A stretch of DNA of 64,000 nt from a virus. The position numbers were made by a program, and so were the translations under genes. The notes beneath the pieces were generated by a model that saw only the letters and a list, made by a program, of their open reading frames with translations, had not been told where the DNA came from and did no database searches. Of the stretch, positions 2,619 to 59,631 are shown one piece after another (positions within the stretch are counted from its first letter, which is position 1; each line of letters begins with the position of its first letter). Location: IMG/VR virus record IMGVR_UViG_3300021138_002011, positions 32,001-96,000 of that record; one strand, 5' to 3'.

Positions 2619-3563
2619 ATGAAAGAATTATCCAACTGTTTATCTTCTAATGATCAATACAATGAGCGTACTCGCATCTTCATTGAAAAAGCAATAGAGG
2701 TCCATCAAAATCTTTATTCATATGACACTACAGTTTATGTCCATAGTCATAAGAAGGTTGAAATAACCTGTCGTATCCATGGGGTATTTTCGCAAGTAGC
2801 GTCTAATCATATACAAGGGTTCGGTTGCCGAATGTGTCAATATGCTGCAAAAAGAATGAACTATACCAAATATAGAACTATAGATGAGATAAAATCTGTA
2901 ATCAACAAAAAGTTTCCAATCTTTTTAATTTTGGATATACAAGGTATCAATTTCAAATCAAAGGTGCATCTAGAATGTCCGCATCATGGAAAGTTTCAGT
3001 GCACAGTTTCTGCGATCCATCATAGCTCACGATTTTTGTGCAAACGATGTTCTCATGAATATGCGAGCAAAAACGCAACTATGAAGCAGGATGAGTTTAT
3101 TAAAAGATGTGTTGAGAAACATGGCGATACGTATGATTACTCAAAAACGGTATATCGCCATTCTCATAAAAAAGTCATTTTCATTTGTAGAAAACACGGT
3201 GAGTTTGAGCAATATGTTAGCGCCCATTTGACTGGGTCAGGCTGTCCTCAGTGTCGATACCGGGTTTCAAAGAACTCTACAAAATGGTTAGACAGCTTGA
3301 ACAATCAGAATATCAAATGTGAACAACACGTTGAAGGTAAATTTGTGGATGGACTTGACCCATCCACGAATACGATATACGAATTTTATGGTGATTACTG
3401 GCACGGAAATCCAAAAGTGTTTGATACTCAACTCTACAATAAAAGAACCAAATGTACGATGGGAGAACTCTACCAAAGAACTGTTGATCGTAGATCGTAC
3501 CTGGAATCAAAAGGATACACTGTGATAGAGATATGGGAATCTGACTTCATTTGTGTAACTTGA
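2619..3563 (+). CDS. Free-standing homing endonuclease: zinc-ribbon repeats plus a Vsr-like nuclease domain
   Basis: Repeated YDYSKTVY..SHKKV.I.C..HG.F.Q...H..G.GC..C units and C-terminal FVDG..YEFYGDYWHG..IEIWE. Start moved to ATG 2619, just after TAAATA at 2608-2613. Confidence 0.8.
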   Translation: MKELSNCLSSNDQYNERTRIFIEKAIEVHQNLYSYDTTVYVHSHKKVEITCRIHGVFSQVASNHIQGFGCRMCQYAAKRMNYTKYRTIDEIKSVINKKFPIFLILDIQGINFKSKVHLECPHHGKFQCTVSAIHHSSRFLCKRCSHEYASKNATMKQDEFIKRCVEKHGDTYDYSKTVYRHSHKKVIFICRKHGEFEQYVSAHLTGSGCPQCRYRVSKNSTKWLDSLNNQNIKCEQHVEGKFVDGLDPSTNTIYEFYGDYWHGNPKVFDTQLYNKRTKCTMGELYQRTVDRRSYLESKGYTVIEIWESDFICVT

Positions 3564-4275
3564 TCCACTCTTTTCTCTCATCAGCTTTGTTGTGATTAAA
3601 AATAAGGTCTAGCGCCTCTGACAATTTCCCATCATCCAACAAGGGCACTAGTTTTGGATTGGCAAGGCTATGTATCCAATCAGTTTCCTCAAGGCTACCA
3701 AGTCCTTTGGCACGTGTTGGTTTTGGTGCACCTTTCCAATCATCTGCATTATAAGTTTGATAGTCATCTGCATACCAATAATAACGCTTTTTACCTTTTT
3801 CTTGGATGATAAATGGAGTTTGAAAGACATAGAATACTGGAGGTAGTTTAGGATCGAACAGCTCGGGCCAATGAAGATAGAAAAAGTTTACCAGCAGTGC
3901 TGTAATGTTTGCGCCATCGGGATCTTGGTCTGCAGCTAGATATACATTGCCATAGCGCATGTCTTTTCGATTGGCTTTTTGTCCTAGACCTACTCCTACA
4001 GCAGTCATAATGTCTGCAATAATTTGATTATCAATGACAGTCTTGGGCAATTCTCCTCTAACATTAAGGATTTTACCTCGCAAAGGTAGTGCTCCGTGAA
4101 TTTCCGGATTTCTTACCGCAGCTACCATGCTCTTAGCACTATTGTGACTGAGTAGACCATTTGATAACACAAACGTTTCGTCATCTAATACTTGTATGTC
4201 GTACATGTTTGTTTTTCCTATCGGAGAGATATCTGCAATGTCTTCCATTAAAAACAAACTTTCATTAACATTCAT
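3547..4275 (-). CDS. Topoisomerase II large subunit, C-terminal fragment, with N-terminal split-intein IntC (45 aa, 4141-4275)
   Basis: MYDIQV..ETFVLSNGLLSHN|SAKS, then PLRGKILNV, DQDPDG (TOPRIM) and KGLGS. Confidence 0.92.
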   Translation of the reverse strand: MNVNESLFLMEDIADISPIGKTNMYDIQVLDDETFVLSNGLLSHNSAKSMVAAVRNPEIHGALPLRGKILNVRGELPKTVIDNQIIADIMTAVGVGLGQKANRKDMRYGNVYLAADQDPDGANITALLVNFFYLHWPELFDPKLPPVFYVFQTPFIIQEKGKKRYYWYADDYQTYNADDWKGAPKPTRAKGLGSLEETDWIHSLANPKLVPLLDDGKLSEALDLIFNHNKADERKEWIKLHK

Positions 4276-5573
4276 TTTTGTATAGCTCCGTTTATAATAT
4301 CAGTTATTGTTTTTTTATAGTCTTTTGGATCAAGTATTATTGATCCAAATGTATGTTCTTTTTTCTTCATATGATCTTTGTATTCTTGCGAATCGCCGCC
4401 GGCAATTTCAATATAAATATTCTGCGATACCATCCATATATCATAAAATAAGCTACTATTTGGATATTTTCCATTAATCATAAAATCATCAAATTCCGTT
4501 AACCCTAGAGAACATAAATAATCATAGATTCTAATCTCATTAAAACTCTTGAGAATCGTTCCTTTATCTGTGTATGAATAGCAGCTATAATTATTATGAA
4601 ATATTTTACGAAGATTTTTTCTATAATCTGGCAGTATTTCTCTAATATTGTTTTCAATTTCAACTACAGACACTCCAAAAAAATCTTTTGCAACTTCGTA
4701 AAATTTATAGAATTTCAATTCTTTTTCTAAATTGAACATATGATATTGATACGTTTGACAGTCCTCAACTATGTTAGCAACTCGTTCGATGAATGTATCA
4801 AACAATTCGATATTATATTCATAATCATCTCTTTTAATATGTGCTCGTAAGTAATACTCAGTTCCTTTAATTTTTCCGTATTTTTTGATATAAGAAATAA
4901 GGCTGATATTTGTGCCGTCTTTCCATTTGTTATATTTTAGTAACCCTTCTTGTGCTCCATATTTTTTTATGAAATTGTCTAAAGTGATCGCCTTTCTTTG
5001 CTGAACAGCATTCCACATCGATTCTCTGTTGCTATCGATATATCCTTGATAGCTACGAGAATAATTGGCTTTATTAATCCACGCATTACGATCTTTATCA
5101 TTCTCTTCGAACCATTTCTTTGAACGACTTTGCGATTTCTTATAATCATTTATATTTTGATGATTTTCTTTATAGAATGGGCTGCTATTTCGACCATGAA
5201 TTTTTTCTAATGCTGCTGTTTCATTGATTCCATATGCTTTTCTTACAAATTCTATACTGTTTTTGTTTAATTTCTTACTTTCACAATTGTTTTTTGCAAA
5301 ACAAAGGAACTGCGCAGTGTGTCTGCGTCTCACTCCAGTTGGTATGATACAACCGTTGTTCACATAATGATTTATACCGATAATATCATGATTAAAATCA
5401 CCGCACCATGCACATCTTAATTCATGATGTTTTATATCCCATATCTTAAGATAACTGAATATTGATATATTTTTTCTTGTCAATGTTGCTCGTAACCGAA
5501 TACTTCTATCATGTTCAGTATTCTTTGATCGAAAACTGATATTCAATTTTTCACATGTAAATTCACATAACAT
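4272..5573 (-). CDS. Putative homing endonuclease (PD-(D/E)xK-like C-terminus) in the topoisomerase split-intein gap
   Basis: AT-rich; KKYG repeats; C-terminal KSFNEIRIYDYL..FYDIW..IYIEIAG; stop overlaps the IntC start (ATGA). Confidence 0.7.
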   Translation of the reverse strand: MLCEFTCEKLNISFRSKNTEHDRSIRLRATLTRKNISIFSYLKIWDIKHHELRCAWCGDFNHDIIGINHYVNNGCIIPTGVRRRHTAQFLCFAKNNCESKKLNKNSIEFVRKAYGINETAALEKIHGRNSSPFYKENHQNINDYKKSQSRSKKWFEENDKDRNAWINKANYSRSYQGYIDSNRESMWNAVQQRKAITLDNFIKKYGAQEGLLKYNKWKDGTNISLISYIKKYGKIKGTEYYLRAHIKRDDYEYNIELFDTFIERVANIVEDCQTYQYHMFNLEKELKFYKFYEVAKDFFGVSVVEIENNIREILPDYRKNLRKIFHNNYSCYSYTDKGTILKSFNEIRIYDYLCSLGLTEFDDFMINGKYPNSSLFYDIWMVSQNIYIEIAGGDSQEYKDHMKKKEHTFGSIILDPKDYKKTITDIINGAIQK

Positions 5574-5582
5574 GGTATTATA

Positions 5583-5625: not shown

Positions 5626-7443
5626 TTATGATAAATTATGCGCTATTAATAAATGAATTTCAGAATCTAGATATTTGGTAGGAATTTTTTCAATAATACC
5701 AGAAGAAATATTTAACACTGAAAATAAATGGTTTTCAGAAATTATACATGTTTGATTGATTATACCATTCGTAAATGATACAGATTTATTAAACTTTTCA
5801 TCATCAAAGTCATCTACCCTTACAATTTCAAAAAACGAAGATTCCATGTTAATGATAGATGAGAGTAATTTATGTTGAGTTTTAACAATATCTTTGGCTT
5901 TCACCACTTCATACATATTGTTTTCAACATTGAAAACAGGCATTTTGTGATCTGTGCTTATTTTTATAACTTTACCAGTTGATGTTGTTATCGACACACC
6001 ATCAGTAATTTTTGCCTGCTTGTTACATATTGGTTTGATCGCGCCTGTGTGCGTTAAAACAAGATCTCCAAGATTTACGTCTTTTACTTTTTTATTGATA
6101 AATTCACCATCTTCGAAAATTGCGATTTGTGTGTCTTCAGCTATGCAGTCGCCTTCACAGATTAGAAGAATGCACTTGCTGCGATCCTTGCCGTTTGCAT
6201 CCAGCAGCTTTGGAACCTTATTTCTCATAAGTTTGCGATTGGCTTTGGCTATATCCGCATCGTCGCGTTTTTGGGTACGAGCTGCACAACGTTTGTATAT
6301 TGCGTCAACCCATGTCTTGTGTGTGCGAAGTATGCTCTTAAATGTAATTTCGTTTTCAAGGCTTGTTTTGATGTAGCGATCAACTTCGTCGTTGATCAAC
6401 CGAGTTTTGCTTTGGCTATCAAAGTTAGGCGCATGCATTGTGGTTGTATTATAAATTAATAATCCGTCGGCAATGTCGCTGCGATTGGGGGCTAACCCTC
6501 TGCGCTTGCTTTCTCGTTCCATAGCTTTAAGCATGCCGCTAAAGAATAATCTTTTAAACGTGTCAATGTGTTGACCTCCGTTAAAAGCTGGGATGTCATT
6601 TACAGTACTGTGTACAAACTCGCCTTCGATTCCAAATTCAGGAACCAAATAATATGTGCTGGCAAACTTATCTTCGTTAATGCTGATAATTACAGGATCA
6701 CTATCGGCAAACATGGTTTTGTCAATGCTTTTACCTACAGTGACCTTTTCGCCGTTGAATGTAAATCGAATTTTAGGATGGTTGGCGGCTACCTCAAATA
6801 TACGAGATTTGACAAAAGATAAAGGAATCTTTGCGTTTGGAAATACAGTTGGGCTAAGTGAAAAATTGATTTCTGTACCGGATTTCATTGCGCTGGAAAA
6901 AATGCGTGGTTCACTGATATCCAAATCGGGCATCAGTTCAGACCCTTCTTTAAAGGTCTGTTGAAATCGTTTGCCAGCTCTCTTGATATCAATGACGAAT
7001 TCTTTTGAGCAACTTACTACAACTGATGCTCCAATACCATTTGTTCCGCGTACTTCTTCCCTCTCACCAAAATTGCGACCAGCACGAGCTTGGGTAAGTG
7101 CCATAGTTGCTTTGTGCATTTTTTCATTTTCGTCCCAGTCAATTGGAATGCCTCGGCCATCGTCGGCAACACTAAAGGTTAATGTTTTTGGATCGTATGT
7201 TACATCAATTTTACTACCATGTCCGTGGCCTACAACTTCGTCAAGACTGTTATCAAATATTTCTCTAAAAGCACAGTATGCAGCAGGCGTCCATGCAACG
7301 TTTTCGGCTACTAGTTTCTTTCCGTCCCAATTAATTACAGTCTGTGTATGTAAATTACGGCTGCCAAGATACATTTCGGTACGCAGGCGATGATGCTGGG
7401 TATCGGTTAGTTTGACAATTTCTTCGCTTGATTTTTTAGCCAT
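5626..7443 (-). CDS. Topoisomerase II large subunit (gp39/GyrB-like), N-terminal fragment ending in split-intein IntN (from C1 at 6147)
   Basis: GHKL motifs EIFDNSLDE, DDGRGIP, GTNGIGAS and FDSQSK, then LICEGD|CIAEDTQI..V.LGDLVLTH..ISTDHKMPV. Confidence 0.93.
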   Translation of the reverse strand: MAKKSSEEIVKLTDTQHHRLRTEMYLGSRNLHTQTVINWDGKKLVAENVAWTPAAYCAFREIFDNSLDEVVGHGHGSKIDVTYDPKTLTFSVADDGRGIPIDWDENEKMHKATMALTQARAGRNFGEREEVRGTNGIGASVVVSCSKEFVIDIKRAGKRFQQTFKEGSELMPDLDISEPRIFSSAMKSGTEINFSLSPTVFPNAKIPLSFVKSRIFEVAANHPKIRFTFNGEKVTVGKSIDKTMFADSDPVIISINEDKFASTYYLVPEFGIEGEFVHSTVNDIPAFNGGQHIDTFKRLFFSGMLKAMERESKRRGLAPNRSDIADGLLIYNTTTMHAPNFDSQSKTRLINDEVDRYIKTSLENEITFKSILRTHKTWVDAIYKRCAARTQKRDDADIAKANRKLMRNKVPKLLDANGKDRSKCILLICEGDCIAEDTQIAIFEDGEFINKKVKDVNLGDLVLTHTGAIKPICNKQAKITDGVSITTSTGKVIKISTDHKMPVFNVENNMYEVVKAKDIVKTQHKLLSSIINMESSFFEIVRVDDFDDEKFNKSVSFTNGIINQTCIISENHLFSVLNISSGIIEKIPTKYLDSEIHLLIAHNLS

Positions 7444-14168: not shown

Positions 14169-15257
14169 TTATAAAACGCAAGATTCGCAATGCTCTTCGT
14201 CATCGTAATTGATAGATTCAATCATAGCTGGAGTATTTTCTGCATCCATTTTGCTACCTTGTTTTTCAACAAGTGAGTAATATATGGTTTTCAATCCCCA
14301 TACGTGTGCCTGCATTAGGTTCTTCGCAATTAATGTAGTCGGCACTTTACGATCTGGAAAGTGTTTTGGTGAATAGAAGGTATTGGTACTGATAGATTGA
14401 TCTATATACGCTGCTAATACAGCAGCAGTTTTTAAGTAGCTATCACAGTTTTTTTGATCCCACAGCAATTGATACTTACTTTTTAGCTTTTGATATTCTG
14501 GCACAACTTGTATAAATGACCCAGCTTTTGATTCTTTAACACTAATCAAACTCATCGGTATTTCAATTCCGTTTGTTGAGTTAATGACAACACTTGAACT
14601 TTCAACTGGTGCGATTGCCATTAGTGTTGAATTACGAACACCATATTGTTTCATATTAGCACGAAGATTTTCCCAATCTAACTCTGGTGTAAAATCTGCA
14701 AGTTCATTAACACCAGTTGCACGCAATTCCCAAGGGAACACTCCTTGTCCGTAACGTGTTTGACCACTATGCAAACATGCGCCGCGTTCTTTTGCTAATT
14801 CGACGGTGGCTTCTGTAAGATAGAATGCTTGATGTTCCATCCAAGATTTAACTTCTTGTAGAGCGTCTTTTTCACCATATTTGAAGTTGCGTTTTGCATG
14901 CCAATATGCAAGGTTTGTGACACCAATTCCAAGTGGTTGAATCTCATCATTACTAAGCTTGCTTTGTATGCTTAGGAAATCTTGATAATCAAGTATATTG
15001 CATAAGCTACGTTGTAGAATTCTGCAAGCACGTCGCATGTCTTCTGGGTTTCTAAATGCGCCCCAATTGATCGACCCCAGAGTACACAACGATATGCGAC
15101 CGGTATCATCGTCAAGTCGCTTAAATGATTTGGTCGGCAAAAGTATCTCGCAATTATGGACTAATATATTATTAGCAAAAAAGGAGTGTGTTCTATCTAC
15201 TGTGATATCATATACCGCTTCTGGTTTCGATATTTTTATTTTTCTAATTTTAATCAT
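14169..15257 (-). CDS. nrdA: NrdA fragment 3 (C-terminal) with split-intein IntC (35 aa, 15153-15257)
   Basis: VYDITV..HSFFANNILVHN|CEILLP, ISLCTL, APVESSS, DQSISTN, KTIYY and terminal CESCVL. Confidence 0.93.
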   Translation of the reverse strand: MIKIRKIKISKPEAVYDITVDRTHSFFANNILVHNCEILLPTKSFKRLDDDTGRISLCTLGSINWGAFRNPEDMRRACRILQRSLCNILDYQDFLSIQSKLSNDEIQPLGIGVTNLAYWHAKRNFKYGEKDALQEVKSWMEHQAFYLTEATVELAKERGACLHSGQTRYGQGVFPWELRATGVNELADFTPELDWENLRANMKQYGVRNSTLMAIAPVESSSVVINSTNGIEIPMSLISVKESKAGSFIQVVPEYQKLKSKYQLLWDQKNCDSYLKTAAVLAAYIDQSISTNTFYSPKHFPDRKVPTTLIAKNLMQAHVWGLKTIYYSLVEKQGSKMDAENTPAMIESINYDDEEHCESCVL

Positions 15258-16222
15258 AATATACGTCCATGTTTATATGTTATATTTTCTTTCAAGAATT
15301 GATCTAATTGGTCTGCATTAAGTCTAACATTCTTAACTCCGTTTGTTACCCATCTATATATCGATGATGCAGATGACAGCTTCTTCTTTTGCTCATCACC
15401 CCTATAGTAAGGATTATAACTTACTACTGCTAATCCTGCATTAATAAGTGTATTATTCACTTCTGATACTAGTTCTTCACGACCATTAGTAAATCTATTT
15501 TTTATAATCGTAACACTAACATTCAACACATTCTTCAATGCATCATCCATCTCTTTACGAAGTATATAATTACCATACCTGTTATTTGTAATCACATAGT
15601 TTACAATAACATCTATAACCATCTGCCTAGTAATATCAGGTTTAGCATTTGAGTTATTCACACCAATTGATCTTGCCGACTGTAACTTAGACTGCTCTTT
15701 AGTATTCTTACGACCCGCGTTCCAATGTACCCATTCCTTTGATATTACTTTCTCGTGATTTGTTGGTACCCTGCCTATCTTCTCACCAGTGATAGAATCT
15801 TTTACCAACATAGTATTGACCATAGACTCGCGAATACCTTCTATAGCTAACTTACGATATTTCTCATATTTTTTTGAGCGTGATAAGTTATACCATTCTT
15901 CCCGCGGATGCGATGACTTGTCTAATAACGTAAAGAACCATACTAACGATTTTTTCGCTGACTGTTCATATCGTGTCCCACTGTAAATTTTTGTTAATAG
16001 CAAATGCGACAAGAAATGCTCGCGAATTGTTAATAATACCAAATTGTTCTTATCATTACAATCCCCATCTAAGTTTCCGATTGGGCCTGTTCTACCTCTG
16101 CGATTTTTAAACATAAAGGTAGGGATGATATGATGCAACTCATAATAAATCTTTCCACCTTTCACTCTATTTTCTTCTTTAGCACGATTTATAATATTTT
16201 GATAAATTTTTCTATAGTTCAT
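15254..16222 (-). CDS. HNH homing endonuclease in the second nrdA gap
   Basis: MNYRKIY..YYELHHIIP..NLVLLTIREHFLSHLLL. Confidence 0.85.
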   Translation of the reverse strand: MNYRKIYQNIINRAKEENRVKGGKIYYELHHIIPTFMFKNRRGRTGPIGNLDGDCNDKNNLVLLTIREHFLSHLLLTKIYSGTRYEQSAKKSLVWFFTLLDKSSHPREEWYNLSRSKKYEKYRKLAIEGIRESMVNTMLVKDSITGEKIGRVPTNHEKVISKEWVHWNAGRKNTKEQSKLQSARSIGVNNSNAKPDITRQMVIDVIVNYVITNNRYGNYILRKEMDDALKNVLNVSVTIIKNRFTNGREELVSEVNNTLINAGLAVVSYNPYYRGDEQKKKLSSASSIYRWVTNGVKNVRLNADQLDQFLKENITYKHGRIL

Positions 16223-16279: not shown

Positions 16280-17422
16280 CTATTTTATCAGTAACTCGTC
16301 AGTCTCCTCTAAATCTTGTGCTTCTACCCATCCTCTGTTAGTGGTGAATATCTTGTGATCAACCGTGCAACGTATGATTTGCCCCGATTCTGTTTCAATC
16401 TCTACTAATTCATCTACCTTTTTGGTTAGTATAGCATTTGAAATATTCTCCCATACTATTTTTTTGCCGTCCCACGACTTCGCTAATACAGTATCGTCAT
16501 AATACCCGTTAGTCCAGCTTTCTGTGAAGGTAGCAATATTTGTCTTAAGAATTTGTCCTGCATACTGTATCTCTATTTCTGTCTCACCTGTTAAACAACA
16601 AAGATTGCTTTGATATATGGTATGATATTCTGGATCAAACGGGCCTTGATTCTGAACGTTGTCAATAAACACAAGATAGATACGTCCAGTATCTGTGCGT
16701 TCTTTAAGTATGCCACCTTTGAACACTTCTTCTGCACTCATAGTTTTTGTTCTTAGGTCTGTGCGTTTTTCATATTGAACATACAGTTCTTCAAACAGTG
16801 CAGTGTTTTTATAAAACGCTTCATAGAGATCTGGAACTTCGTTTGGATCAAAGAATGTAATGTTTTCTTGGTTCTTAAATCTACGCCAGAAAAATGCATT
16901 TAGAACTACACCATAGTCCATGTGACGAACTCTAGTCTCTTCTGTACCTTGGTTATTTTTCAACACAATTAGATCATCAAACTGGTGATGCCATAATGGG
17001 TAGAACACTGTTGCACTATTGTGGGCCAATAATAATTTGTCTGGTTCCATCCCTGCATAATAATTTTCATGTTCATCAATGCTAAAATCGGCATATTGAG
17101 TTGATACGTTAGGAGAAGTTACTTCTTTAACTTTATCTTTTTTGTTGATAACAGACACTACATAATCTCCTGTAGTAATATCACCACCCTTTACATATTT
17201 GATTTTTCCAAATTCATTGATTGCAGTAGGATGTGTGTCGCTCGTAATTAATTTAGCATCCGATGTTGATGTAATTTTTACTTGGTGTTCATGTGGAACT
17301 ATCGGTCTCATGACATTTAATACTTTACGATATACATCCGTTTGTGTTTCAATATCACAAGATAGTACCAAATCTCCCAATTTTACTTCATCAATTTTAA
17401 CTCTGTTCGATAAAAATTTCAT
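16280..17422 (-). CDS. nrdA: NrdA fragment 2 (middle): long IntC (135 aa, 17018-17422), extein, then IntN (105 aa, from 16597)
   Basis: VKIDEVKLGDLVLS..TSDTHP..LLAHN|SATVFYPLWH..ERTDTGRIY..QSNLC|CLTGET..CTVDHKIFT. Confidence 0.92.
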   Translation of the reverse strand: MKFLSNRVKIDEVKLGDLVLSCDIETQTDVYRKVLNVMRPIVPHEHQVKITSTSDAKLITSDTHPTAINEFGKIKYVKGGDITTGDYVVSVINKKDKVKEVTSPNVSTQYADFSIDEHENYYAGMEPDKLLLAHNSATVFYPLWHHQFDDLIVLKNNQGTEETRVRHMDYGVVLNAFFWRRFKNQENITFFDPNEVPDLYEAFYKNTALFEELYVQYEKRTDLRTKTMSAEEVFKGGILKERTDTGRIYLVFIDNVQNQGPFDPEYHTIYQSNLCCLTGETEIEIQYAGQILKTNIATFTESWTNGYYDDTVLAKSWDGKKIVWENISNAILTKKVDELVEIETESGQIIRCTVDHKIFTTNRGWVEAQDLEETDELLIK

Positions 17423-18326
17423 TTATTCTGTCCTTCAAGTCGGATGATATTTCTTTGTCGTCTAATATTGTTTTATAACCAAGAACCTCTTCGATTGCAA
17501 CAATACAATATTGACCTTTTCTGCAATTTTCTTTTTTTGGTATTAGTTGTAAATTTTGATAACTTCCTATAATTAATGGATGTATCTTGTTGACAAATCC
17601 GCCATATTTGGAAAATTTGTGATCAACAGCGTATCCATTCTTACCATAAATTATACCTAATTTGTTTTTTTCCGGATCGATGATATTTCCATATACAGCA
17701 ATCGATATTTTGGTAGCTGTTCTTACTGCATCACAATAACTGTCGTAATTATCATAACTAAATTTCTTCAAAACAGGCCCGTGTTCTGTCCGACTATTTT
17801 TAAACCAACGAATTAATTTTGCCTCGTGTTTAACAGTAGATGCCCGCGATAAAAAAGTTTCTTGACGATTTTTAATTTTAGATTGGTATTCATTCCATTT
17901 GTCTTTGCCGATTGTTTCTCCAAACCTCGTTATATATGATTCCAATGAAGGGAGACGACCTATATCAGACCTATATTGTTGTGCTCGTATTTCAGCATCT
18001 TCTAACGAATACCCTTTAGATACCCAGTGATTTGAATTTGACGGGGTTGTTTTTTGTTTTTTTCGTGTTTTTCGTTTTTCATTAATTAAAAGAACTGCTT
18101 CTTCTTCAGTTTTACCCCGAGATATATAATATTCAATTGACCACGGGCTATTTTTTGCCCTATCTTTTCGAAGGTTTTTGTCGATTTTGTTAAACTCTTC
18201 GCCACACTTGAATTCTTTGAGATACTCATTTAAATTCATTCTGTTATGTCTCATAGTCAGATGTCGTTGTAACTGGCTCACGTTAGCCGAGCAAATTTTG
18301 CAAATATGCATCTCTTTCATCATCAC
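17397..18326 (-). CDS. Putative HNH-type homing endonuclease in the first nrdA gap
   Basis: N-terminal CKIC..HLTMRH finger, YITRFG repeat, and AVDHKFS..NLQLIPKKENCRKG. Confidence 0.75.
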   Translation of the reverse strand: MMMKEMHICKICSANVSQLQRHLTMRHNRMNLNEYLKEFKCGEEFNKIDKNLRKDRAKNSPWSIEYYISRGKTEEEAVLLINEKRKTRKKQKTTPSNSNHWVSKGYSLEDAEIRAQQYRSDIGRLPSLESYITRFGETIGKDKWNEYQSKIKNRQETFLSRASTVKHEAKLIRWFKNSRTEHGPVLKKFSYDNYDSYCDAVRTATKISIAVYGNIIDPEKNKLGIIYGKNGYAVDHKFSKYGGFVNKIHPLIIGSYQNLQLIPKKENCRKGQYCIVAIEEVLGYKTILDDKEISSDLKDRINEIFIEQS

Positions 18327-19401
18327 TTCCCATATAGGCTAAAATAGTTAGCACATCAGTTATATTTATCACTTTGTCATCTTTTTTAATTATGTCACCT
18401 TGATAATAATTTTTGCCGTTAAATTCAAATCCAGTTAATTTGTCTACATATGAGTCTATGTGTACACATGCGTTCCTGATTCCGCCCTGACTGCATGATC
18501 TTAGATCGCCAAACCATTTCTTTAAAAATGGAATCATACCAGTGTGCATGATTTCACCGCCTCTGATAGGACTTCCCAATGGTCGCAATCTGCCAATTTC
18601 CAACCCAATGCCAGCACGTTTGCTAGCATATTTTGCCATCATTTCTCCTGATGCAAAGATACTGTCTAGGTCATCGTCACTACGTATAAGCACACACGAA
18701 CTAAACTGTTTGGTTGGTGTCCCTAGTCCTGCTAATACAGGCGTGGCAAGAGTAAACAAGCCCTCTGAAGCAGACTGATAGTATTCTTTGATGTATCGCA
18801 TACGAGCATTATTTGGTTCCTCTTTATGAAAAACCGTAGCCGCAGCTATCATATACCGTATTTGTGGTGTTTCATAAATATTTTTCGTTGCACGATTTCG
18901 AACTAGATACTTTTCGATCAACTGCTCAATTGCTGCGTAACTATACTGTTCATCTTTTTCATGATCCAGCATTTCATTCATTTTGTTCCAGTCATCTTCA
19001 GTATACCAATCAAGAAGATCTGCAGTGTATAATCCCGTATCTACATTTTTTTTAACAACTGAATATAGATGAGGAACTTCATACGTACCGTATACGTCTT
19101 TTCGTAGCATACTTAAACGTTGCTTTCCTGCAACGTACTGATAGTTGGTATGCCCAATTCCTGGGTTGATGTCTACGTCAATTAAATCAACTATAGCTCG
19201 CAGTGTTATACCATCAATTTCAACAGTTGATATTCCGTTATAAAAATGCGGCTGCGCTTTGATTTCGATCATTGATTGGCTAACGTCTGCTATGTTTTTG
19301 CAAACTTTGGCAATTTGTGCTTGCCATTTACCAATGTTAAGTAACTCTCGGTGTCCGTCGCGCTTGGTGACGTAAATTTCTCCCTGTCTTTGGGCGGCCA
19401 T
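18283..19401 (-). CDS. nrdA: NrdA fragment 1 (ATP cone to GGIRNA) ending in a short IntN (C1 at 18468)
   Basis: VTKRDG ATP cone, ETPQ, LATP, QFSSCVLI and CSQGGIRNA|CVHIDSYV. Confidence 0.92.
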   Translation of the reverse strand: MAAQRQGEIYVTKRDGHRELLNIGKWQAQIAKVCKNIADVSQSMIEIKAQPHFYNGISTVEIDGITLRAIVDLIDVDINPGIGHTNYQYVAGKQRLSMLRKDVYGTYEVPHLYSVVKKNVDTGLYTADLLDWYTEDDWNKMNEMLDHEKDEQYSYAAIEQLIEKYLVRNRATKNIYETPQIRYMIAAATVFHKEEPNNARMRYIKEYYQSASEGLFTLATPVLAGLGTPTKQFSSCVLIRSDDDLDSIFASGEMMAKYASKRAGIGLEIGRLRPLGSPIRGGEIMHTGMIPFLKKWFGDLRSCSQGGIRNACVHIDSYVDKLTGFEFNGKNYYQGDIIKKDDKVINITDVLTILAYMGSDDERDAYLQNLLG

Positions 19402-38171: not shown

Positions 38172-38364
38172 ACGCTGGTCAACTCTCTCAGATTAACCTC
38201 TAGACGGGGCAGACGTTCTAATATTAAACTACACACAGTTGGTTATATGGTTTTAATTATGACAATTGCTTATTGAAGTTAAGCTAGCATCTTATTTTAT
38301 ATTATTGCAAATACTGTAAACCAATATCAACTAAATATAGTTTTATATTTTGATTGGAGAGTTT

Positions 38365-39528: not shown

Positions 39529-39674
39529 AGTTTACAAGATTTACTAGTTGTCATGGCCTTCAACTATCCGCTTAACTCCTTTACAAGCTTTCGGGTCCTC
39601 GGCTCTATGCCAGATCTGGTAATTTCTTACAGAACGAGAAATATGTAGGCATAAATGTTCTCCTGTGTTGCAGT

Positions 39675-40967
39675 CTATTTATGCCGTACAATTAGTTTAT
39701 CACCAACTTTCAGTCCTGTTTCTAAACTTTTTTCTCCGTTACTTGTTGGGAACACATGATTATTACTACATGTAATAGTCTTTCCAGATTTTGTTGTGAT
39801 CTTAAACACTGGTCTAGGACTAACTTTGGTTACATCAGTTACGCTAACAGGTCCTTCATCTGAATCTAGCCAATCACCAACATTGACATCTTTGATTTGG
39901 ATAGTTTTACCATTGGCAGTTACAGTCGAGTCAAGAGTAAGGCAACGATTTAATTGTGCAGCGGTCTGCCCAATCATTTTACGTTCGACCATTAACCCTC
40001 TTAGTTCTTCGGTAACAAACTTATCCTTAACAAACAAGTTGCTTGGGTCAATTTTTTTATTGTTCGGAAACAACAAGTCAAGGTAATCAACAACTAGTGC
40101 ATCGGCTTTTTTTCCAGTTTCAATTTCATAGTTTTTGAGATATGCTTTGATATCATTTACAGTGCTACCTTGCGGCATTTGCTTAACATGCATACTACCG
40201 CTCTTGTGGCCAGCTTGTTTTACACGTATTTCAACTTCATCTAGCTTACGGAATATTTCTTTAGTTGCTACTTCACTAAGCATACTGTCCATTCTCATTG
40301 AACACAGTTCTTCACTGAGCTCTAGTGAAATATAGATAACATTAAGACCTTGTTTAGCAAAGTTAAGTGCAATATTTTGCAAAAACAATGACTTACCAAC
40401 ACCCGACCCTGCGCACCATATTGTAATCTCGCCTCTGTTTACCCCGCCATATAACTTGTCGTCTACATCGCGCCATCCAGTACTGATTTGTCCATTGTTG
40501 TCTTTAATACGAAGAAGCCTTGCACGAGGATCATGGAAGTAGTTGGTACCAATATCACTTTGCAAGCTGATTAGTATTGCTTCGCGTACACGTTTTTCAA
40601 CTTCGCCATAATTACCTTTTTCTATAAGATCCACTGCGCTTAAAACAGCGTCAGCAAGAGCTCTATTTTTACAAAACTCTTCGATTTCATCCAAAAATGC
40701 GTCTTGATGTTGTGCAGTAATGTTATCAATTTTTGCAAAATTCATCCCTGTTTCGGCATTAACCTGCTCAAACTTTGGTAATACACTATAATTCTCAGCA
40801 TGACTTAATATAAATCGCATAGCAGGACGAAGTTTATTAACAAAATATGTTGCATTGAGTATATTTTGACACCTGGCAAATATTTCGTCGCTGCTCAGCA
40901 GCACATTAATTAGCAGCTTTTGCTTGTCTTCAGTATATTCCTTTACCTCGTCTGGTTCTCTTGCCAT
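39675..40967 (-). CDS. gp41: gp41/DnaB replicative helicase N-terminal fragment ending in IntN (89 aa, from 39944)
   Basis: AGSGVGKS (Walker A), ISLELS, VVDYLDL and AAQLNR|CLTLDSTV..CSNNHVFPT. Confidence 0.93.
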   Translation of the reverse strand: MAREPDEVKEYTEDKQKLLINVLLSSDEIFARCQNILNATYFVNKLRPAMRFILSHAENYSVLPKFEQVNAETGMNFAKIDNITAQHQDAFLDEIEEFCKNRALADAVLSAVDLIEKGNYGEVEKRVREAILISLQSDIGTNYFHDPRARLLRIKDNNGQISTGWRDVDDKLYGGVNRGEITIWCAGSGVGKSLFLQNIALNFAKQGLNVIYISLELSEELCSMRMDSMLSEVATKEIFRKLDEVEIRVKQAGHKSGSMHVKQMPQGSTVNDIKAYLKNYEIETGKKADALVVDYLDLLFPNNKKIDPSNLFVKDKFVTEELRGLMVERKMIGQTAAQLNRCLTLDSTVTANGKTIQIKDVNVGDWLDSDEGPVSVTDVTKVSPRPVFKITTKSGKTITCSNNHVFPTSNGEKSLETGLKVGDKLIVRHK

Positions 40968-48550: not shown

Positions 48551-49390
48551 CTAATAAGTTGTTTTCTCAACTGAATAGCTGTATTGCACATCGGCATAGA
48601 ATTTTTTACGTTTTAACAAATGCCTGTTAGAAAACTTACATTTGCTAGAAATATCGTAGATTTCTACTGAGTCTTTGTCATCTGCTTTACGTAGGCCACG
48701 ACCTATGCTTTGTATTACTCTGACAAAACTTTTTCCAGGTTCTACTAGAACAAGATTAAAGATTCTGTTAATTGATATTCCGGTAGATGTTGTTCCGTAT
48801 GTTGCGATCATTATTGCGTTTTCAGCTAAATTAATTTCTTTATAATGCTCTTTACGCTTGGTGCTTTTCATTTGTCCGCTAATGAACGTGGACCCCGGCA
48901 TCAGCTCATGCAATAATTCGCCCGTTTCTATCCTGTCAATCAGCACCAATGTATTACCGGTTTTGGCAATTTCCTGGATCTTTTCGGCTAACCATTGTAT
49001 TCGGGTCCTATTGGTAACCAAAAACTTCAATTCTTCCTGATAGTTGTTGTATACAACAGACTCCTGGGTATGCAAGATGTTGACATGGCACTGGGCTAAA
49101 TGGCCTTCATCCTGTAGCTCCTTGGCGGTGAGCCGGCCAATTATTGGCCCAATTGCGCTATAAAGACTTGCTTGATTGTATTCTTCTTCCGGTATCGTAC
49201 CGGTTAATCCCCATCGAATAGGTATGTTGGCAAACGTAGTTGTAAGCAAACCATGCAAGACGTTCATGTTTTTCACACTATGACAGTTAGACACTACGGC
49301 CCGTTCTACTATATAATTGTGATCATCCTGTACATGTAGGTTGTAAACTTGATCAGGTTTACTGATTTCTCGGCGACTTAGCAGTTTCAT
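48551..49390 (-). CDS. uvsW: UvsW helicase C-terminal fragment with IntC (35 aa, 49286-49390)
   Basis: VYNLHVQDDHNYIVERAVVSN|CH..WGLTGT..STGISI..QSIGRGLR. Confidence 0.9.
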   Translation of the reverse strand: MKLLSRREISKPDQVYNLHVQDDHNYIVERAVVSNCHSVKNMNVLHGLLTTTFANIPIRWGLTGTIPEEEYNQASLYSAIGPIIGRLTAKELQDEGHLAQCHVNILHTQESVVYNNYQEELKFLVTNRTRIQWLAEKIQEIAKTGNTLVLIDRIETGELLHELMPGSTFISGQMKSTKRKEHYKEINLAENAIMIATYGTTSTGISINRIFNLVLVEPGKSFVRVIQSIGRGLRKADDKDSVEIYDISSKCKFSNRHLLKRKKFYADVQYSYSVEKTTY

Positions 49391-49648
49391 ATAGGTATCC
49401 TATCTTTCTTGCAGTTTCAGAATCAAATCTAGCTAGATCTGGCAATGGTACATTAGACGTTAGCCATTGTTGATCAATTAGCAATATTTTATAATCGTGT
49501 TGTTTTGCCCAGTCTTTAAGGACAGTATATTTTGCTTCCCATTTAGTGCCATTAAACAAGTTATAAGGTTTGACCTCAACTACAAGTTTATCAACATGAT
49601 CAATAAAATCAACGATGTACACATAATTATATTTTCATACGTTGCCAT
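49359..49648 (-). pseudogene. Internally deleted TnsA-like endonuclease remnant
   Basis: YIVDF..VVEVKP..K..WAK; the apparent original start (MATYENII, with RBS and TAAATA) is out of frame with the remaining C-terminal part. Confidence 0.65.
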
Positions 49649-49684: not shown

Positions 49685-50695
49685 TTAATAGTTGATAATG
49701 TCGTGATCAACAGTTATTTCATCAGCTCGGCACCACCCGATGGTGGTTAAAAACTTATGATTACCAGTAACCTGTATTTTTGAATGATTATCAAATTCTA
49801 ATTCATACATCTTTTCATTTGTTGAATCGGTTAGATTGCAATGTTGTTTTATTACAGTGTCAACTTTGAATTGTTGTAACTTCTCAGAATAGTTGATAAC
49901 CTGTTGCCCAGACGATATATCCTTTATTGGAATATATCCGGTAGGTGTTAAAACACGCATATCACCATTAAAACATTCATCGCATACCACTGCCACTAGA
50001 TTATCCAGGAACACGGTTAGTTGTTCATCGTCCAGCGCATCCTTATTCTTTTTATCAAGTACGTTAAGGCTTTGCCATGTACATATGGTATGTGTCCTAT
50101 CATATTCCTTACGATCTCCATAAAGCACTCCAACGTCTAGACCCACATTCCTGTAATCCTCTTCTGTTTGCAACACAAGGTTCTTATTTGGAACGATAAC
50201 TATGGTACGGCCATATTTTTCAGCCAGCTTTGATAAGCTGGCAGTGATGATCGTTTTTCCTGCCGATGTAGGAGCCACAGACACGCCCTGCAGGTTGTTG
50301 ATACATTCGTTGATTGCCTGCGCTTGATAATCCCGTAGCTGTATGGGTTGTCCGGCTGCCCTATGATCCGCCGGCCATACTATGTGGCTTAGGAAATTTT
50401 CATCAATTTCGTCAAACTCGAATGTATGATTAGCCCTTAGATCAGTTATGTCAAACTCGTATCCTGCGGCTACCAGCACAGGTAATATCTTATCAAGAAG
50501 ATTCAGATAGGTTCGACCACCTAGCGTACAAAAGCTTGTTGTACCATCCCACCTACCCAGTTTGTATGCAGGACTATATCTAGCATGCGGTAAAAAATAT
50601 TTTACCGCATTAACACATGCCCGACGTGTTACCAGGTCCAGACCTTCTATCTTAACGGTAACTTCCGATTCTATTATTATTTCAGCCATTTTCAT
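49685..50695 (-). CDS. uvsW: UvsW helicase N-terminal fragment ending in IntN (96 aa, from 49975)
   Basis: LRDYQ, APTSAGKT, TWQSL and VVCDE|CFNGDMRVLTPTG..VTGNHKFLT. Confidence 0.92.
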   Translation of the reverse strand: MKMAEIIIESEVTVKIEGLDLVTRRACVNAVKYFLPHARYSPAYKLGRWDGTTSFCTLGGRTYLNLLDKILPVLVAAGYEFDITDLRANHTFEFDEIDENFLSHIVWPADHRAAGQPIQLRDYQAQAINECINNLQGVSVAPTSAGKTIITASLSKLAEKYGRTIVIVPNKNLVLQTEEDYRNVGLDVGVLYGDRKEYDRTHTICTWQSLNVLDKKNKDALDDEQLTVFLDNLVAVVCDECFNGDMRVLTPTGYIPIKDISSGQQVINYSEKLQQFKVDTVIKQHCNLTDSTNEKMYELEFDNHSKIQVTGNHKFLTTIGWCRADEITVDHDIINY

Positions 50696-54758: not shown

Positions 54759-54788
54759 CTAATCGGCTTGTGCAAATTTAAAAATGGC

Positions 54789-54816: not shown

Positions 54817-54819
54817 CTA

Positions 54820-57222: not shown

Positions 57223-57249
57223 TATAATCTCCGTTTATAGATATAGTAT

Positions 57250-58962
57250 TTAGCTGATCATTACAGAGAATGGTAACGGGTCACGCTGTTCGTTTGTATC
57301 GCCATCAAACACGTCTTTAAGAAGCTCACCTACTCTGTCGTCCCAATTTGTAACCATTTGCATCATGCGAATGCAGAGTATAGTACTCATAACGCAATCG
57401 TCGTGTTCGCCTTGTTTGGCCGCAAAACTATCGCCTTTACTTACAAAAAATTTCAGTTGTTTAACAAGAAGTTTGCTGTTAATTTTAAGTCGATTGCCTT
57501 CAAGAAGACTTTTCAGTTTCAGGCAAGCTTGTGCTTTTGAGCGTCCGTTGGTGTTAAGTCCTTTGCGATATCTAACTAACCCAGTTTTTCGAGGCTCGTT
57601 TAACAACTGTCCCATGAAATTTTCTTCGCCAATGTCATTAACAGATTGTATAGCAGCTTCTCCCAAAGTATTATTTTCAAAAGTAAAATATATGTCCGGC
57701 TCGCCTTTATAACCTTGCTTTTTAACTTCTGTATACAATGTATTAATTATAATTTGCATGGTACGTACTTGGTTCGGAATGCTTACTCTGTTGCTAGTCC
57801 ATTCAGCTACTTGAACCATGTCGGGTATGCTATACACTTGGATGCATGCAGGGTCTTTGTTTACTCCCGCACTAGGATCAAGGCTTACAATATACGTCTT
57901 ATCAAGAGATATTTTTTCATACCATCTAACTTCGGCTGTTTTGAAAAGTGGCTCTATGCCTTTTAAACGCTGTAGTGTTAGACTGTTTACCAATGTACTT
58001 TCTTCGCCTGCAAATTGGCATTCATATTCACGCTGGAAACGTTCTGCGCCAATTTTTGCCCGCTCAATTGCTGCCCACGCATCGTCTCGGCCAGGTACGT
58101 CACTGTAGCGTGCGCTAAAACCTTTAAACCCATTAATACCAACGCCGTTTGGAATCTCGTTGCCGTGTTCATCGATTGTGTTGATTGCCCCAAACCACAG
58201 CTCGGCAAAAGTGTCCTCGTCACTGGCAGGAGTAGATGTTATTATGCATTTTCCGCCTGTTGCTAATGTAGGTGCCATAGCTGTCCAGAATTCCACAGCT
58301 ACACGAGGTCGTACATAGGCAAACTCGTCTAAGTACAACAGACTAATACTCATACCACGACCGCTATCTGGTGTAGTAGTGGTAGCTACAATTCTTGAGC
58401 CGTTGTCAAACCGTATACTTGTTACGTTGTATTCTGTAACGCCTGCACGTATATGGTCTGGCATTTCTTCGTATGCGTATTTGATACGCATCATAATTTC
58501 ATTTGCTGCTTTGAATTTGTTAGCAGCAATTAACACTGTCACATCGTCATTGTACATAGCATACCACAGCAAATAACCTGCAGCAGTGGTGGTATTATGG
58601 CTAAGTATACCGTTGCTATAATACCTGTGATCAACATTATTAACCGACACATCGTACATATTTTCCATTGCGGCAGTTTGTATAACTGATCGCACCGACA
58701 CTGCCCCACAATCAGTTTGTACACGATGCTGCGGTGTAAGATCTTTAACAAAAATTTCAGCATGATTTTCATCAAATACAATATGATTATCAGCACATTG
58801 CAACCGATATCCATTGTCTAATACCATGTCATAAACTTGATATTCAACAGTTTTTGATATTTCTACACAAGGTTGCCAGCCAGAATCAGTAAGTATGTCC
58901 CAGTCATCTAACGAAATTTGATCGACAAATTTACGATCTACGTTTTCAGAAATTCTATGCAT
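57250..58962 (-). CDS. terL: Terminase large subunit C-terminal fragment with a long IntC (123 aa, 58594-58962)
   Basis: CADNH..MYDVSV..YYSNGILSHN|TTT, LYLDEFA (Walker B), ITSTP, FQREYEC, SLDPSAG and HDDCVM. Confidence 0.93.
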   Translation of the reverse strand: MHRISENVDRKFVDQISLDDWDILTDSGWQPCVEISKTVEYQVYDMVLDNGYRLQCADNHIVFDENHAEIFVKDLTPQHRVQTDCGAVSVRSVIQTAAMENMYDVSVNNVDHRYYSNGILSHNTTTAAGYLLWYAMYNDDVTVLIAANKFKAANEIMMRIKYAYEEMPDHIRAGVTEYNVTSIRFDNGSRIVATTTTPDSGRGMSISLLYLDEFAYVRPRVAVEFWTAMAPTLATGGKCIITSTPASDEDTFAELWFGAINTIDEHGNEIPNGVGINGFKGFSARYSDVPGRDDAWAAIERAKIGAERFQREYECQFAGEESTLVNSLTLQRLKGIEPLFKTAEVRWYEKISLDKTYIVSLDPSAGVNKDPACIQVYSIPDMVQVAEWTSNRVSIPNQVRTMQIIINTLYTEVKKQGYKGEPDIYFTFENNTLGEAAIQSVNDIGEENFMGQLLNEPRKTGLVRYRKGLNTNGRSKAQACLKLKSLLEGNRLKINSKLLVKQLKFFVSKGDSFAAKQGEHDDCVMSTILCIRMMQMVTNWDDRVGELLKDVFDGDTNEQRDPLPFSVMIS

Positions 58963-59200
58963 TGTTTTATGATTTTTTCAGGGTTTGATTTATAGTCCGA
59001 TTCCCAGACTATCATTACGTCGTAGCCATTTGCTATGGCTGTATTTATTTTGTTATTATCTCTATTACGTATTTCATTAAACGATAATCGTGCATATGGG
59101 CACACATATGTCTCGTCATACATAGTTGGGTTAGCATGCCAAAAATTACCATTGTATTCTATAATTTTATTACCAAAAGATATATCGTACAAATAAACAG
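58938..59200 (-). pseudogene. Vsr-like endonuclease remnant (C-terminal part only) in the terL gap
   Basis: YDISF..IIEYNGNFWHANP..GYDVMIVWESD; the upstream part of the called ORF overlaps terL-N and has no credible start. Confidence 0.7.
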
Positions 59201-59202
59201 GC

Positions 59203-59631
59203 TTAGGTTTCTTTTGGTTTTTCTGTATTTTGGGCCGGCCGGATATATTGGCTAATGTCGGGCAAGGTAGTACCTTCACGCATACAAGCTGCCCATTCGT
59301 AGTAGATTCCGATCGGTATGTCATATATGTTTCCTGTAGATTGCTGTTTAATAGTAATTATAGTAATATTTGTAAGACATTTCCCACTTTGTCTAGGAAT
59401 CATTGCTATAGTATTTCTATTTTTCCAATATGTATGAATCAATTCTCGTTGAAACTGATATGCTTCAAATTGCATTTTGCCTTTCAGTGGATGCTGTATA
59501 CACATAAAGTGTTCCATAAAATACAAAGGATTCAACTGGCAGTTAGCAAGTTCAGTAAATTGTGCTTGTGTAAGTGTTATTTTCTTACCAGCCGGCTTTA
59601 GTTTTTCAAATTCAGTCGTATTTTTACCCAT
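59203..59631 (-). CDS. terL: Terminase large subunit N-terminal fragment ending in a short IntN (C1 at 59379)
   Basis: NPLYFM..YQFQ..PRQSGK|CLTNITIITIK..IPIGIYY. Confidence 0.9.
   Translation of the reverse strand: MGKNTTEFEKLKPAGKKITLTQAQFTELANCQLNPLYFMEHFMCIQHPLKGKMQFEAYQFQRELIHTYWKNRNTIAMIPRQSGKCLTNITIITIKQQSTGNIYDIPIGIYYEWAACMREGTTLPDISQYIRPAQNTEKPKET

Follow-up and report, generated by a model that had tools for sequence, protein, structure and literature searches.

Five core genes of a phage are broken into pieces in a 64,000-nucleotide (nt) stretch of DNA, positions 32,001 to 96,000 of the IMG/VR virus record IMGVR_UViG_3300021138_002011 (hereafter the window, whose own numbering is used throughout). 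The genes encode the topoisomerase II large subunit (Topo), the ribonucleotide reductase NrdA, the helicase gp41, UvsW and the terminase large subunit TerL. They are very probably fractured by six natural split inteins, two of which lie in NrdA (sites NrdA-a and NrdA-b), and class 1 protein trans-splicing would restore the five proteins. The presence of six such inteins in 56 kb had been proposed in an earlier note made from the letters of the window, and the proposal is supported by sequence motifs, exact junctions on intact homologues, intein homology, one fold model, purifying selection, independent assemblies and polymorphism of the sites among relatives.

The phage to which the window belongs is a freshwater one of jumbo type. 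Megablast of positions 52000-62000 against named phages returned no match and relatives were therefore sought by protein; by TerL, the nearest named relatives are Sinorhizobium phage Phosso and Agrobacterium phage Atu_ph07, and the PA5oct group shares 48.5% TerL identity with the window phage.

Intein halves and extein junctions

Coding in the window is nearly all on the minus strand in the open reading frame (ORF) map of the 64,000 nt, and the five genes comprise eleven fragment ORFs (three for NrdA and two each for Topo, gp41, UvsW and TerL), all on that strand. Each of the six N-terminal pieces runs past a conserved host motif into an intein N-part (IntN) that begins with Cys, and each of the six C-terminal pieces opens with an intein C-part (IntC), which ends in HN at five sites and in SN at one (UvsW). 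The +1 residue is Ser in Topo, NrdA-a and gp41, Cys in NrdA-b and UvsW, and Thr in TerL. The earlier note had described Cys-initial N-parts and C-parts ending HN or SN before C, S or T, and the translated ORFs bear this out at every site. Position 1 is thus the Cys of class 1 inteins in all six, the block B His is present in all six and is preceded at -3 by Thr or Ser in five, and no site lacks the terminal Asn or a +1 nucleophile. TerL has Ala at -3 (ADNH), as does the VidaL intein, and the penultimate His is present in five of the six, being replaced by Ser in UvsW.

The exteins are fully open (100%) and align full-length to their homologues. When the fragments were aligned separately, the extein ends abutted on adjacent residues of intact homologues at all six sites, in agreement with the earlier claim that joining them restores conserved motifs. 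Removal of the inserts likewise restores an uninterrupted host protein at 6/6 sites, and relatives with the empty site exist for all six. The predicted spliced products of 629 (Topo), 778 (NrdA), 468 (gp41), 484 (UvsW) and 531 (TerL) amino acids (aa) compare with homologues of 625/622, 773, 489/495, 506 and 532 aa, respectively. Phosso and Atu_ph07 served as junction references for gp41, UvsW, Topo and TerL, and the first three of these are single open frames in both phages. A search with the NrdA middle fragment found no counterpart of NrdA in Atu_ph07 or Phosso, and NrdA of Stenotrophomonas phage YB07 was therefore taken as the reference for that gene.

The earlier note had suggested running intein hidden Markov models (HMMs) on the fragment ORFs. 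Doing so gave Pfam HINT-type matches, two of which were over the cut-off (NrdA-a IntC, PT-HINT 5.9e-9; NrdA-b IntN, Intein_splicing 2.4e-12) and the others weaker; TerL IntN, NrdA-a IntN and the IntC of gp41, UvsW and Topo had no Pfam match. Matches to PDB inteins of the E<=1e-4 class were obtained for gp41, NrdA-b, UvsW and TerL, NrdA-a was recognized by its fold model, and Topo matched weakly. Small HMMs were also built from the window inteins in a leave-one-out manner, the C-module model being trained on five and tested on the sixth among 1315 six-frame pieces of the window. The left-out C-module was the best non-training piece in five of six cases (E 2.4e-7 for Topo, 7e-10, 1.4e-5 for gp41, 7.3e-6, and 0.11 for UvsW), and that of NrdA-a was not recovered (not in the top 8). 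Three of four N-modules were recovered at E<=1.8e-3 (Topo at 1.8e-3), the exception being UvsW. No seventh intein module was detected in the six frames of the window, where the next best piece had E 0.11, and the earlier statement that no contiguous intein is present is true of the window as far as these small HMMs can reach.

Host genes, gap genes and neighbouring features

The same fractured-gene layout, in which a host-IntN gene is followed by a gap gene and then by an IntC-host gene, was found at all six sites. The earlier note had spoken of an intervening endonuclease; this stood as far as a full-length ORF occupies the Topo, NrdA-a and NrdA-b gaps, whereas the gp41, UvsW and TerL gaps hold truncated remnants only, so that the split state outlives the endonuclease. 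In every gap, the start codon of the C fragment is located within the gap ORF, 4-32 nt from its 3' end. Fragments and gap ORFs described below are on the minus strand, and a slash marks each extein-intein boundary.

NrdA is encoded in three fragments. Fragment 1 (18283..19401, 372 aa; Pfam ATP-cone, Ribonuc_red_lgN and lgC) consists of extein 18469-19401 (311 aa, ending GGIRNA) and IntN-a (18286-18468, 61 aa), and fragment 2 (16280..17422, 380 aa) consists of IntC-a (17018-17422, 135 aa, with block B SDTH inside and the end LLAHN), extein 16598-17017 (140 aa, SAT...SNLC) and IntN-b (16283-16597, 105 aa, Cys1 and block B TVDH). Fragment 3 (14169..15257, 362 aa) consists of IntC-b (15153-15257, 35 aa, ending ILVHN; Intein_splicing 6.9e-6, sub-threshold) and extein 14172-15152 (327 aa, starting CEI; Pfam Ribonuc_red_lgC 2.8e-50). 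On YB07 NrdA, the junction GGIRNA/C...LLAHN/SAT falls between residues 301 and 302 and the junction SNLC/C...ILVHN/CEI between 441 and 442; the three exteins cover residues 4-301, 302-441 and 443-773, residue one of extein 3 falling on 442. NrdA-b IntN matches the NrdJ-1 intein (PDB 8UBS) at E 4.1e-10.

For NrdA-a IntC, the best PDB sequence match was KlbA (E 0.02), and an AlphaFold model of the 135 aa, made from an alignment of 15 sequences, reached a mean predicted local distance difference test (pLDDT) score of 84.9. All 38 Foldseek matches of this model at E<=1e-3 were inteins, bacterial intein-like domains or Hedgehog autoprocessing domains. In VIA alignments (Z 11.5-17), model residues 1-4 to 135 matched complete inteins from residue 11-13 on, covering residues 12-154 of Ssp DnaB, 11-137 of Npu DnaE and 11-125 of gp41-1, and this starting point held in 50/50 listed entries. 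NrdA-a IntC is therefore a HINT domain lacking its first strand, to which IntN-a would add about 11-12 residues; accordingly, IntN-a is described as about 11-12 aa of HINT strand 1 followed by a conserved tail of about 50 aa, the tail being conserved in L055, a 68%-identical homologue. As modelled, the NrdA-a intein has the atypical split after strand 1, the S1 type.

The NrdA-a gap ORF (17397..18326, 309 aa) matched only phrog_5104 (unknown function; 4.8e-7). A repeat module is common to it and the gp41-gap ORF; it is conserved in the relative L039, and its C-terminus looks HNH-like by eye. The NrdA-b gap gene (15254..16222, 322 aa) encodes an HNH-type homing endonuclease (phrog_655, homing endonuclease, 2.8e-25), and it is 34% identical to a free-standing HNH-type ORF at 62451-62954; TAAATA occurs at 16247 in this gap. 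The region 62451-63413 (minus strand) that holds the free-standing ORF also contains a TnsA-like endonuclease (2.4e-23). NrdA of the close relative L039 (L039:2415-9532) is in more pieces than that of the window. It has a second S1-type split intein (with a 19-aa IntN ORF) and a GIY-YIG-like gene 8 extein residues upstream of site a, and its site b is occupied by a contiguous mini-intein of 144 aa. Another NrdA fracture, of 1294 nt and about 16-18 residues downstream of site b, was found in L039, L040 and L046, and its ends lack Cys1 and HN in L039 and L046.

The gp41 N fragment (39675..40967, 430 aa; Pfam DnaB_C) comprises extein 39945-40967 (341 aa, ending QLNR) and IntN 39678-39944 (89 aa, block B SNNH), which has a sub-threshold Pfam match (1.6e-3) and matches the gp41-1 intein (PDB 6QAZ) at E 1.1e-10. 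The C fragment (36666..37175, 169 aa) opens with IntC 37050-37175 (42 aa, ending ILTHN) and continues with extein 36669-37049, which starts SS; the junction QLNR/C...ILTHN/SS falls between residues 348 and 349 of the Phosso protein. The gap (37151..39674) holds a 1673-nt segment (37934-39606) and the remnant of an endonuclease ORF (37151-37930), which is 5'-truncated and putatively Vsr-like. A plus-strand radical SAM/SPASM gene (38350-39528; Pfam SPASM and Radical_SAM) is carried as cargo inside this split-intein gap. The 1673-nt segment removes about 112 N-terminal residues of the endonuclease ORF and is absent from the otherwise 99.7%-identical relative G001, in which (L119) 287 nt stand in its place and the endonuclease ORF has about 371 aa. 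Four IMG/VR loci have identical gp41 intein halves with a 1509-nt insert, and none of the loci retrieved provided an independent copy of the gap as it stands in the window, radical SAM gene included. As a single sequence the gp41-gap ORF had no relevant PDB match; the top PDB match of a profile of three window nuclease domains was I-Bth0305I (3R3P), weak at E 0.54, and Vsr-like is accordingly a provisional label. In these domains, conserved columns of E, D, WH and D agree with the motif as described by Dassa et al. (2009; PMC2677866).

The TerL N fragment (59203..59631, 142 aa) comprises extein 59380-59631 (84 aa, ending RQSGK) and IntN 59206-59379 (58 aa), of which about 45 residues are conserved in L013 and L014. 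The C fragment (57250..58962, 570 aa; Pfam Terminase_6N and 6C) comprises IntC 58594-58962 (123 aa, with block B ADNH inside and the end ILSHN; Intein_splicing 3.3e-3, sub-threshold) and extein 57253-58593 (447 aa, starting TT). The junction RQSGK/C...ILSHN/TT lies between residues 84 and 85 of the Phosso protein. TerL IntC matches engineered CatC (6DSL_B) at 1.1e-4, nearly over its full length (residues 16-122 on CatC 12-111), and VidaL at 1.6e-4, and N-module HMMs built without TerL match it at 1.6e-4 to 6.4e-3. By sequence, the TerL intein has the atypical split after the first helix, the S2 type, the split position being taken from the CatC alignment and not from a pair structure. The gap ORF (58938..59324, 128 aa), which overlaps both fragments, retains only the C-terminal nuclease domain of a putative Vsr-like endonuclease; it matches phrog_22677 at positions 259-349 of 353 (E 3.1e-15) and is 37% identical to the C-terminus of the gp41-gap ORF. 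In L013 and L014 only about 80-100 nt separate the halves of the TerL split intein. Atu_ph07 itself has an atypically split TerL intein at the same site (L005:674-2865; Ser1 ... SHN/TT), its halves lying in two coding sequences separated by 11 nt and annotated simply as adjacent terminase large subunits, with no gene between them; no paper on it was found in the literature searched. A contiguous 325-aa in-frame insert at the TerL P-loop site of L033 (L033:5227-6201) starts with Ala, has a LAGLIDADG-like motif and is unrelated to the window intein.

The UvsW N fragment (49685..50695, 336 aa; Pfam ResIII and DEAD) comprises extein 49976-50695 (240 aa, ending VCDE) and IntN 49688-49975 (96 aa, block B TGNH), which matches Intein_splicing at 2e-7 (sub-threshold), Hint at 7.9e-5 and DnaB inteins in PDB at E 4e-5. 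The C fragment (48551..49390, 279 aa; Pfam Helicase_C) comprises IntC 49286-49390 (35 aa, ending VVSN, without the penultimate His) and extein 48554-49285, which starts CH; the junction VCDE/C...VVSN/CH corresponds to DE/CH in Atu_ph07. The gap ORF (49359..49622) is an 87-aa endonuclease remnant (phrog_15427, endonuclease, 1.4e-4), identical to the last 87 aa of a 315-aa stop-to-stop frame (about 303 aa from Met) in G001 (L180), and the window lacks 619 nt of this gap that are present in G001. At the UvsW locus of L205, the frame from the IntN start continues for 419 aa, as if IntN and endonuclease were fused. Just upstream of the UvsW N fragment lies a free-standing GIY-YIG/NUMOD3 endonuclease gene (50809-51660, plus strand); a high-depth contig of sequencing run X8 joins 50783 to 51576 without this gene, which points to a presence/absence polymorphism.

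The Topo N fragment (5626..7443, 605 aa; Pfam DNA_gyraseB and HATPase_c) comprises extein 6148-7443 (432 aa, ending LICEGD) and IntN 5629-6147 (173 aa, with Cys1, block B STDH and an internal repeat). The C fragment (3547..4275, 242 aa) comprises IntC 4141-4275 (45 aa, ending LLSHN) and extein 3550-4140, which starts SAK and carries TOPRIM (Pfam Toprim 2.2e-6). The junction LICEGD/C...LLSHN/SAK has its equivalent in EGE/S of Phosso and was also checked against Atu_ph07. The gap ORF (4272..5573, 433 aa), presumed from its position to be a homing endonuclease, matched no family in Pfam and PHROGs and showed no similarity to the other gap ORFs; its stop overlaps the start of the C fragment, and TAAATA occurs at 5609 in the gap. 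Beside the C fragment, a 355-aa plus-strand ORF (2496-3563) has zinc-finger repeats and the putative Vsr-like C-terminal domain of the gp41 and TerL gap ORFs.

Further features of the window concern the phage itself. A permuted (two-piece) transfer-messenger RNA (tmRNA) gene of alphaproteobacterial type lies at 7993-8373 on the minus strand (Rfam tmRNA_permuted 68.3 bits, alpha_tmRNA 53.6 bits); the tmRNA type and the nearest named phages both agree with an alphaproteobacterial host. The Rfam freshwater-2 motif was found at 46656-46737 on the plus strand (50.2 bits, gathering threshold 49.9), at the start of a plus-strand ORF (46678-47829). A partial minus-strand ORF at the window edge (3-545) has an SGGxDS-type PP-loop motif and may encode a TilS-type lysidine synthase; TilS in a related jumbo phage is mentioned in the paper on phage MIJ3 (PMC6892783).

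Site states in relatives and alternative explanations

All six sites are polymorphic among relatives. The TerL site was empty in 19 of 23 loci, split with a homologous intein in 2, occupied by the contiguous unrelated intein in 1 and other or unscorable in 1 (L036-L038, at 25-26% identity, are left out). Among the best 80 of 383 NrdA relatives, site a was empty in 63, split with a homologous intein in 8 and other or unscorable in 9, with no contiguous intein (the row of L056 being invalid owing to an extra split intein 8 residues upstream), and site b was empty in 69, split in 7 and occupied by a contiguous homologous mini-intein in 4, with none in the remaining class. The gp41 site was empty in 40 of 55 loci, split in 10, contiguous (homologous mini-intein) in 1 and other or unscorable in 4. 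For UvsW, the best 80 (79 distinct) of 256 relatives comprised 59 empty, 18 split, no contiguous and 2 other or unscorable sites, and for Topo the 37 loci comprised 20 empty, 12 split, no contiguous and 5 other or unscorable sites. The Pfam intein model detected one split pair in the complete 452.8-kb relative G002 and two in the 30.4-kb G001, counts which are lower bounds because this model misses atypical halves.

Several points weigh against reading all six as splicing inteins. The case for splicing is built on sequence, predicted fold and selection. Public models match the Topo intein weakly (IntN: Pfam Intein_splicing 7.3e-3, below the cut-off; best PDB intein match 0.017), and its 173-aa IntN is unusually long, a length of 172-173 aa being found in 4/4 distinct homologues and kept down to 41% identity. 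The block-B half of this IntN is repeated internally (score 51, compared with 24.8+-5.0 for shuffles, 0 of 1000 of which reached 51). A predicted model of it had a mean pLDDT of 55.6 and was unusable, so that no shape is read from it and the repeat is argued from the sequence test alone. Both Topo halves have a negative net charge (-5 and -7), unlike the opposite charges of some split inteins. The penultimate residue of UvsW IntC is S, A or E in 12/12 distinct homologues and never His, and UvsW was barely recovered by the leave-one-out HMMs (C-module E 0.11, N-module E 1.4). An intact paralogue elsewhere is also possible, since the search for a second copy of any extein, which found none, covered the window only.

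The alternative that survives best, although we consider it improbable, is that some or all of the intein halves do not splice and are only non-covalent docking modules, as has been described for Aeromonas phage Aeh1, whose split NrdA has no intein and forms an active enzyme from its two pieces (recounted in Dassa et al. 2009, PMC2677866). The absence of the penultimate His from UvsW IntC in the window and in all 12 homologues, the odd 173-aa IntN of Topo and the further NrdA fracture without Cys1 or HN in L039 and L046 would suit such a role. However, none of the six lacks Cys1, the block B His, the terminal Asn or the +1 nucleophile, and these residues are kept down to 40-65% identity; a docking clasp would not need them and is thereby made unlikely. 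No distinct split homologue compared (TerL 2, NrdA-a 2 valid, NrdA-b 4, gp41 5, UvsW 12 and Topo 4) differed from the window in the kind of residue at intein position 1, at the terminal Asn or at +1. The ratio of nonsynonymous to synonymous divergence (dN/dS) of the intein halves was 0.08-0.25 wherever dS was estimable, indicating purifying selection, although dS near 2 is close to saturation and makes these ratios rough, which is a further point on the unfavourable side. The comparison comprised 34 split rows, in 11 of which dS was saturated and gave no ratio; L174, being identical to the window, gave none either, and the IntN values of L039, L040 and L042 were left out on account of an extra split intein 8 residues upstream. 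In addition, the gp41, NrdA-b and TerL inteins are related to structurally solved inteins that are treated in the literature as active splicers.

It is scarcely credible that the breaks are artefacts of assembly or sequencing, or that the genome is decaying, non-viable and filled with pseudogenes. The source is an assembly of metagenome type and three gap endonuclease genes are visibly decayed, as this explanation would have it, but the fragments are under purifying selection, their exteins are open and align full-length, and many independent IMG/VR loci, taken from other records, are interrupted in the same way. Thus, five loci carry the same 2007-nt Topo insert, with IntN and IntC 99-100% identical, L046 carries the same 1451-nt NrdA-a insert, and L174 the same 690-nt UvsW insert. 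Moreover, of the sampled words of 14000-19500 (the NrdA locus), at least half are present in 20 runs that belong to 17 studies and are all labelled as freshwater, lake or sediment, and 0.90-0.93 are present in three runs not flagged as a possible source. The earlier note had left the stops between the fragments to be confirmed from reads. Contigs, rather than raw reads, were compared at the TerL and UvsW loci and reproduce both gaps. The TerL gap is crossed by contigs of runs X5, X6, X8 and X11, from four studies, with 0-1 differences. At UvsW, the insert is spanned completely by an X6 contig (47585-50014), and IntC, the gap and part of IntN are spanned by an X8 contig (47759-49827), with 1-2 differences; X6 also has a weak joint of 49324 to 49787 (side 20). 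Least credible of all is excision of the intervening stretches from the RNA by group I or group II introns with coincidental intein-like ends, for while group I introns are frequent in phage nucleotide-metabolism genes (PMC3653736), Rfam at gathering thresholds found no such intron in the whole window, only the tmRNA and the freshwater-2 motif, all six inserts begin at intein residue 1 and end at the terminal Asn, and each C fragment has its own ATG.

Under protein trans-splicing, the reading we prefer, six unrelated mobile inteins would have invaded five essential phage genes, and each would either have been split by a homing-endonuclease gene of the free-standing kind or have been in pieces when it was inherited. 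The fragments would be translated separately, and cognate IntN and IntC would associate to form a single HINT domain. Splicing would begin with attack by Cys1, proceed by transfer to the +1 Ser, Cys or Thr and end with cyclization of the terminal Asn, and it would yield intact topoisomerase, gp41, UvsW, TerL and, from three pieces by two ligations, NrdA. The six inteins are mutually divergent, the best-matching pairs having 28/81 (IntN) and 14/33 (IntC) of aligned residues identical, and orthogonality is therefore plausible. Charge polarity is opposite between gp41 (N positive, C negative) and NrdA-b (N negative, C positive). That all six would splice, that the phage would depend on it and that the pairs would not cross-react is what we infer from the sequences. 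The chances seem to us evenly balanced that all six would be active and mutually orthogonal and would form the largest natural co-resident set, with canonical, S1 and S2 splits and a three-fragment NrdA kept from mis-joining by the different split positions of its two inteins; trans-splicing would then gate replication, deoxynucleoside triphosphate supply, recombination and packaging.

Relation to known systems and significance

Fractured genes were described by Dassa, London, Stoddard, Schueler-Furman and Pietrokovski from 26-27 short metagenomic loci, most of which lack one end, with gp41, IMPDH, DnaE, NrdA, NrdJ, ligase, terminase and one unknown protein as hosts (Dassa et al. 2009; PMC2677866). 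The arrangement in the window is that known type, as the earlier note had held: a host-IntN gene, a free-standing endonuclease gene and an IntC-host gene in one locus on one strand, in phage-like enzymes of DNA synthesis and packaging that include gp41, NrdA and terminase. Freshwater sites were among the sources of that study too, and its gp41-7 locus without an endonuclease is paralleled here by L013 and L014. The window differs in having six loci in 56 kb, several loci on a single genome not being reported in that study, and in having two split inteins in one NrdA gene. The endonucleases described there are GIY-YIG or Vsr-like, while one gap gene of the window is HNH-type, and neither topoisomerase nor UvsW occurs in its main text (PMC2677866).

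The gp41-1 (6QAZ) and NrdJ-1 (8UBS) inteins have the same canonical split position as the gp41 and NrdA-b inteins of the window, whose IntC are 42 and 35 aa, respectively, but are distant relatives, with about one third of residues identical in the alignments. The host of NrdA-b is a class Ia NrdA and that of NrdJ-1 is NrdJ. The charge polarities of the window gp41 and NrdA-b inteins agree with those given for gp41 and ribonucleotide reductase inteins by Dassa et al. (2009; PMC2677866). The window TerL intein resembles AceL-TerL, GOS-TerL and Cat (PMC11766414, PMC13014065; 6DSL) in having a short IntN, a long IntC with block B and the S2 split. It has Cys1/Thr+1, in contrast to Cys1/Cys+1 in AceL and Cat and Ser1/Cys+1 in GOS (PMC11766414), and an IntN ORF of 58 aa (about 45 conserved) as against the 25-37 aa given for AceL, GOS and Cat (PMC11766414, PMC13014065); its similarity to Cat is only at E 1e-4. 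At the S1 position, IntN of 16 aa (VidaL) and 15 aa (PolB16) are described (PMC13014065). The NrdA-a IntC model aligns to chain residues 19-141 of VidaL (6VGV; Z 13.4), but unlike VidaL and PolB16 the window intein has NrdA as its host and an IntN ORF extended by a conserved tail of about 50 aa.

The Pseudomonas jumbo phage MIJ3, which by TerL falls broadly in the same neighbourhood (PA5oct group), has one putative PolB split intein with an HNH endonuclease gene between its halves (PMC6892783). It is thus a jumbo phage with one split intein in its DNA polymerase, whereas the window has six in 56 kb in other genes. In the literature searched, we found no paper joining a split intein with UvsW, none on several split inteins in one phage genome, and none on a gene naturally divided into three fragments by two split inteins.

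The mechanism proposed here is a known one and not a new one, and the window offers a dense and informative example of it. What stands out is the density, the two hosts not found in print (topoisomerase and UvsW) and the three-piece NrdA. Orthogonal split-intein sets are sought by engineers (Pinto et al. 2020; PMC7090010), and six divergent split inteins that evolved side by side in one cell-sized vessel offer a natural test bed; two of the six (NrdA-a and TerL) have short N-pieces, which are useful for protein semisynthesis. Sites that are empty, occupied by a contiguous mini-intein, split without an endonuclease, split with an endonuclease, or split with a decayed endonuclease were all found in the population. 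With every stage of gene breaking thus present, the evolutionary model of Dassa and colleagues becomes testable on real intermediates.

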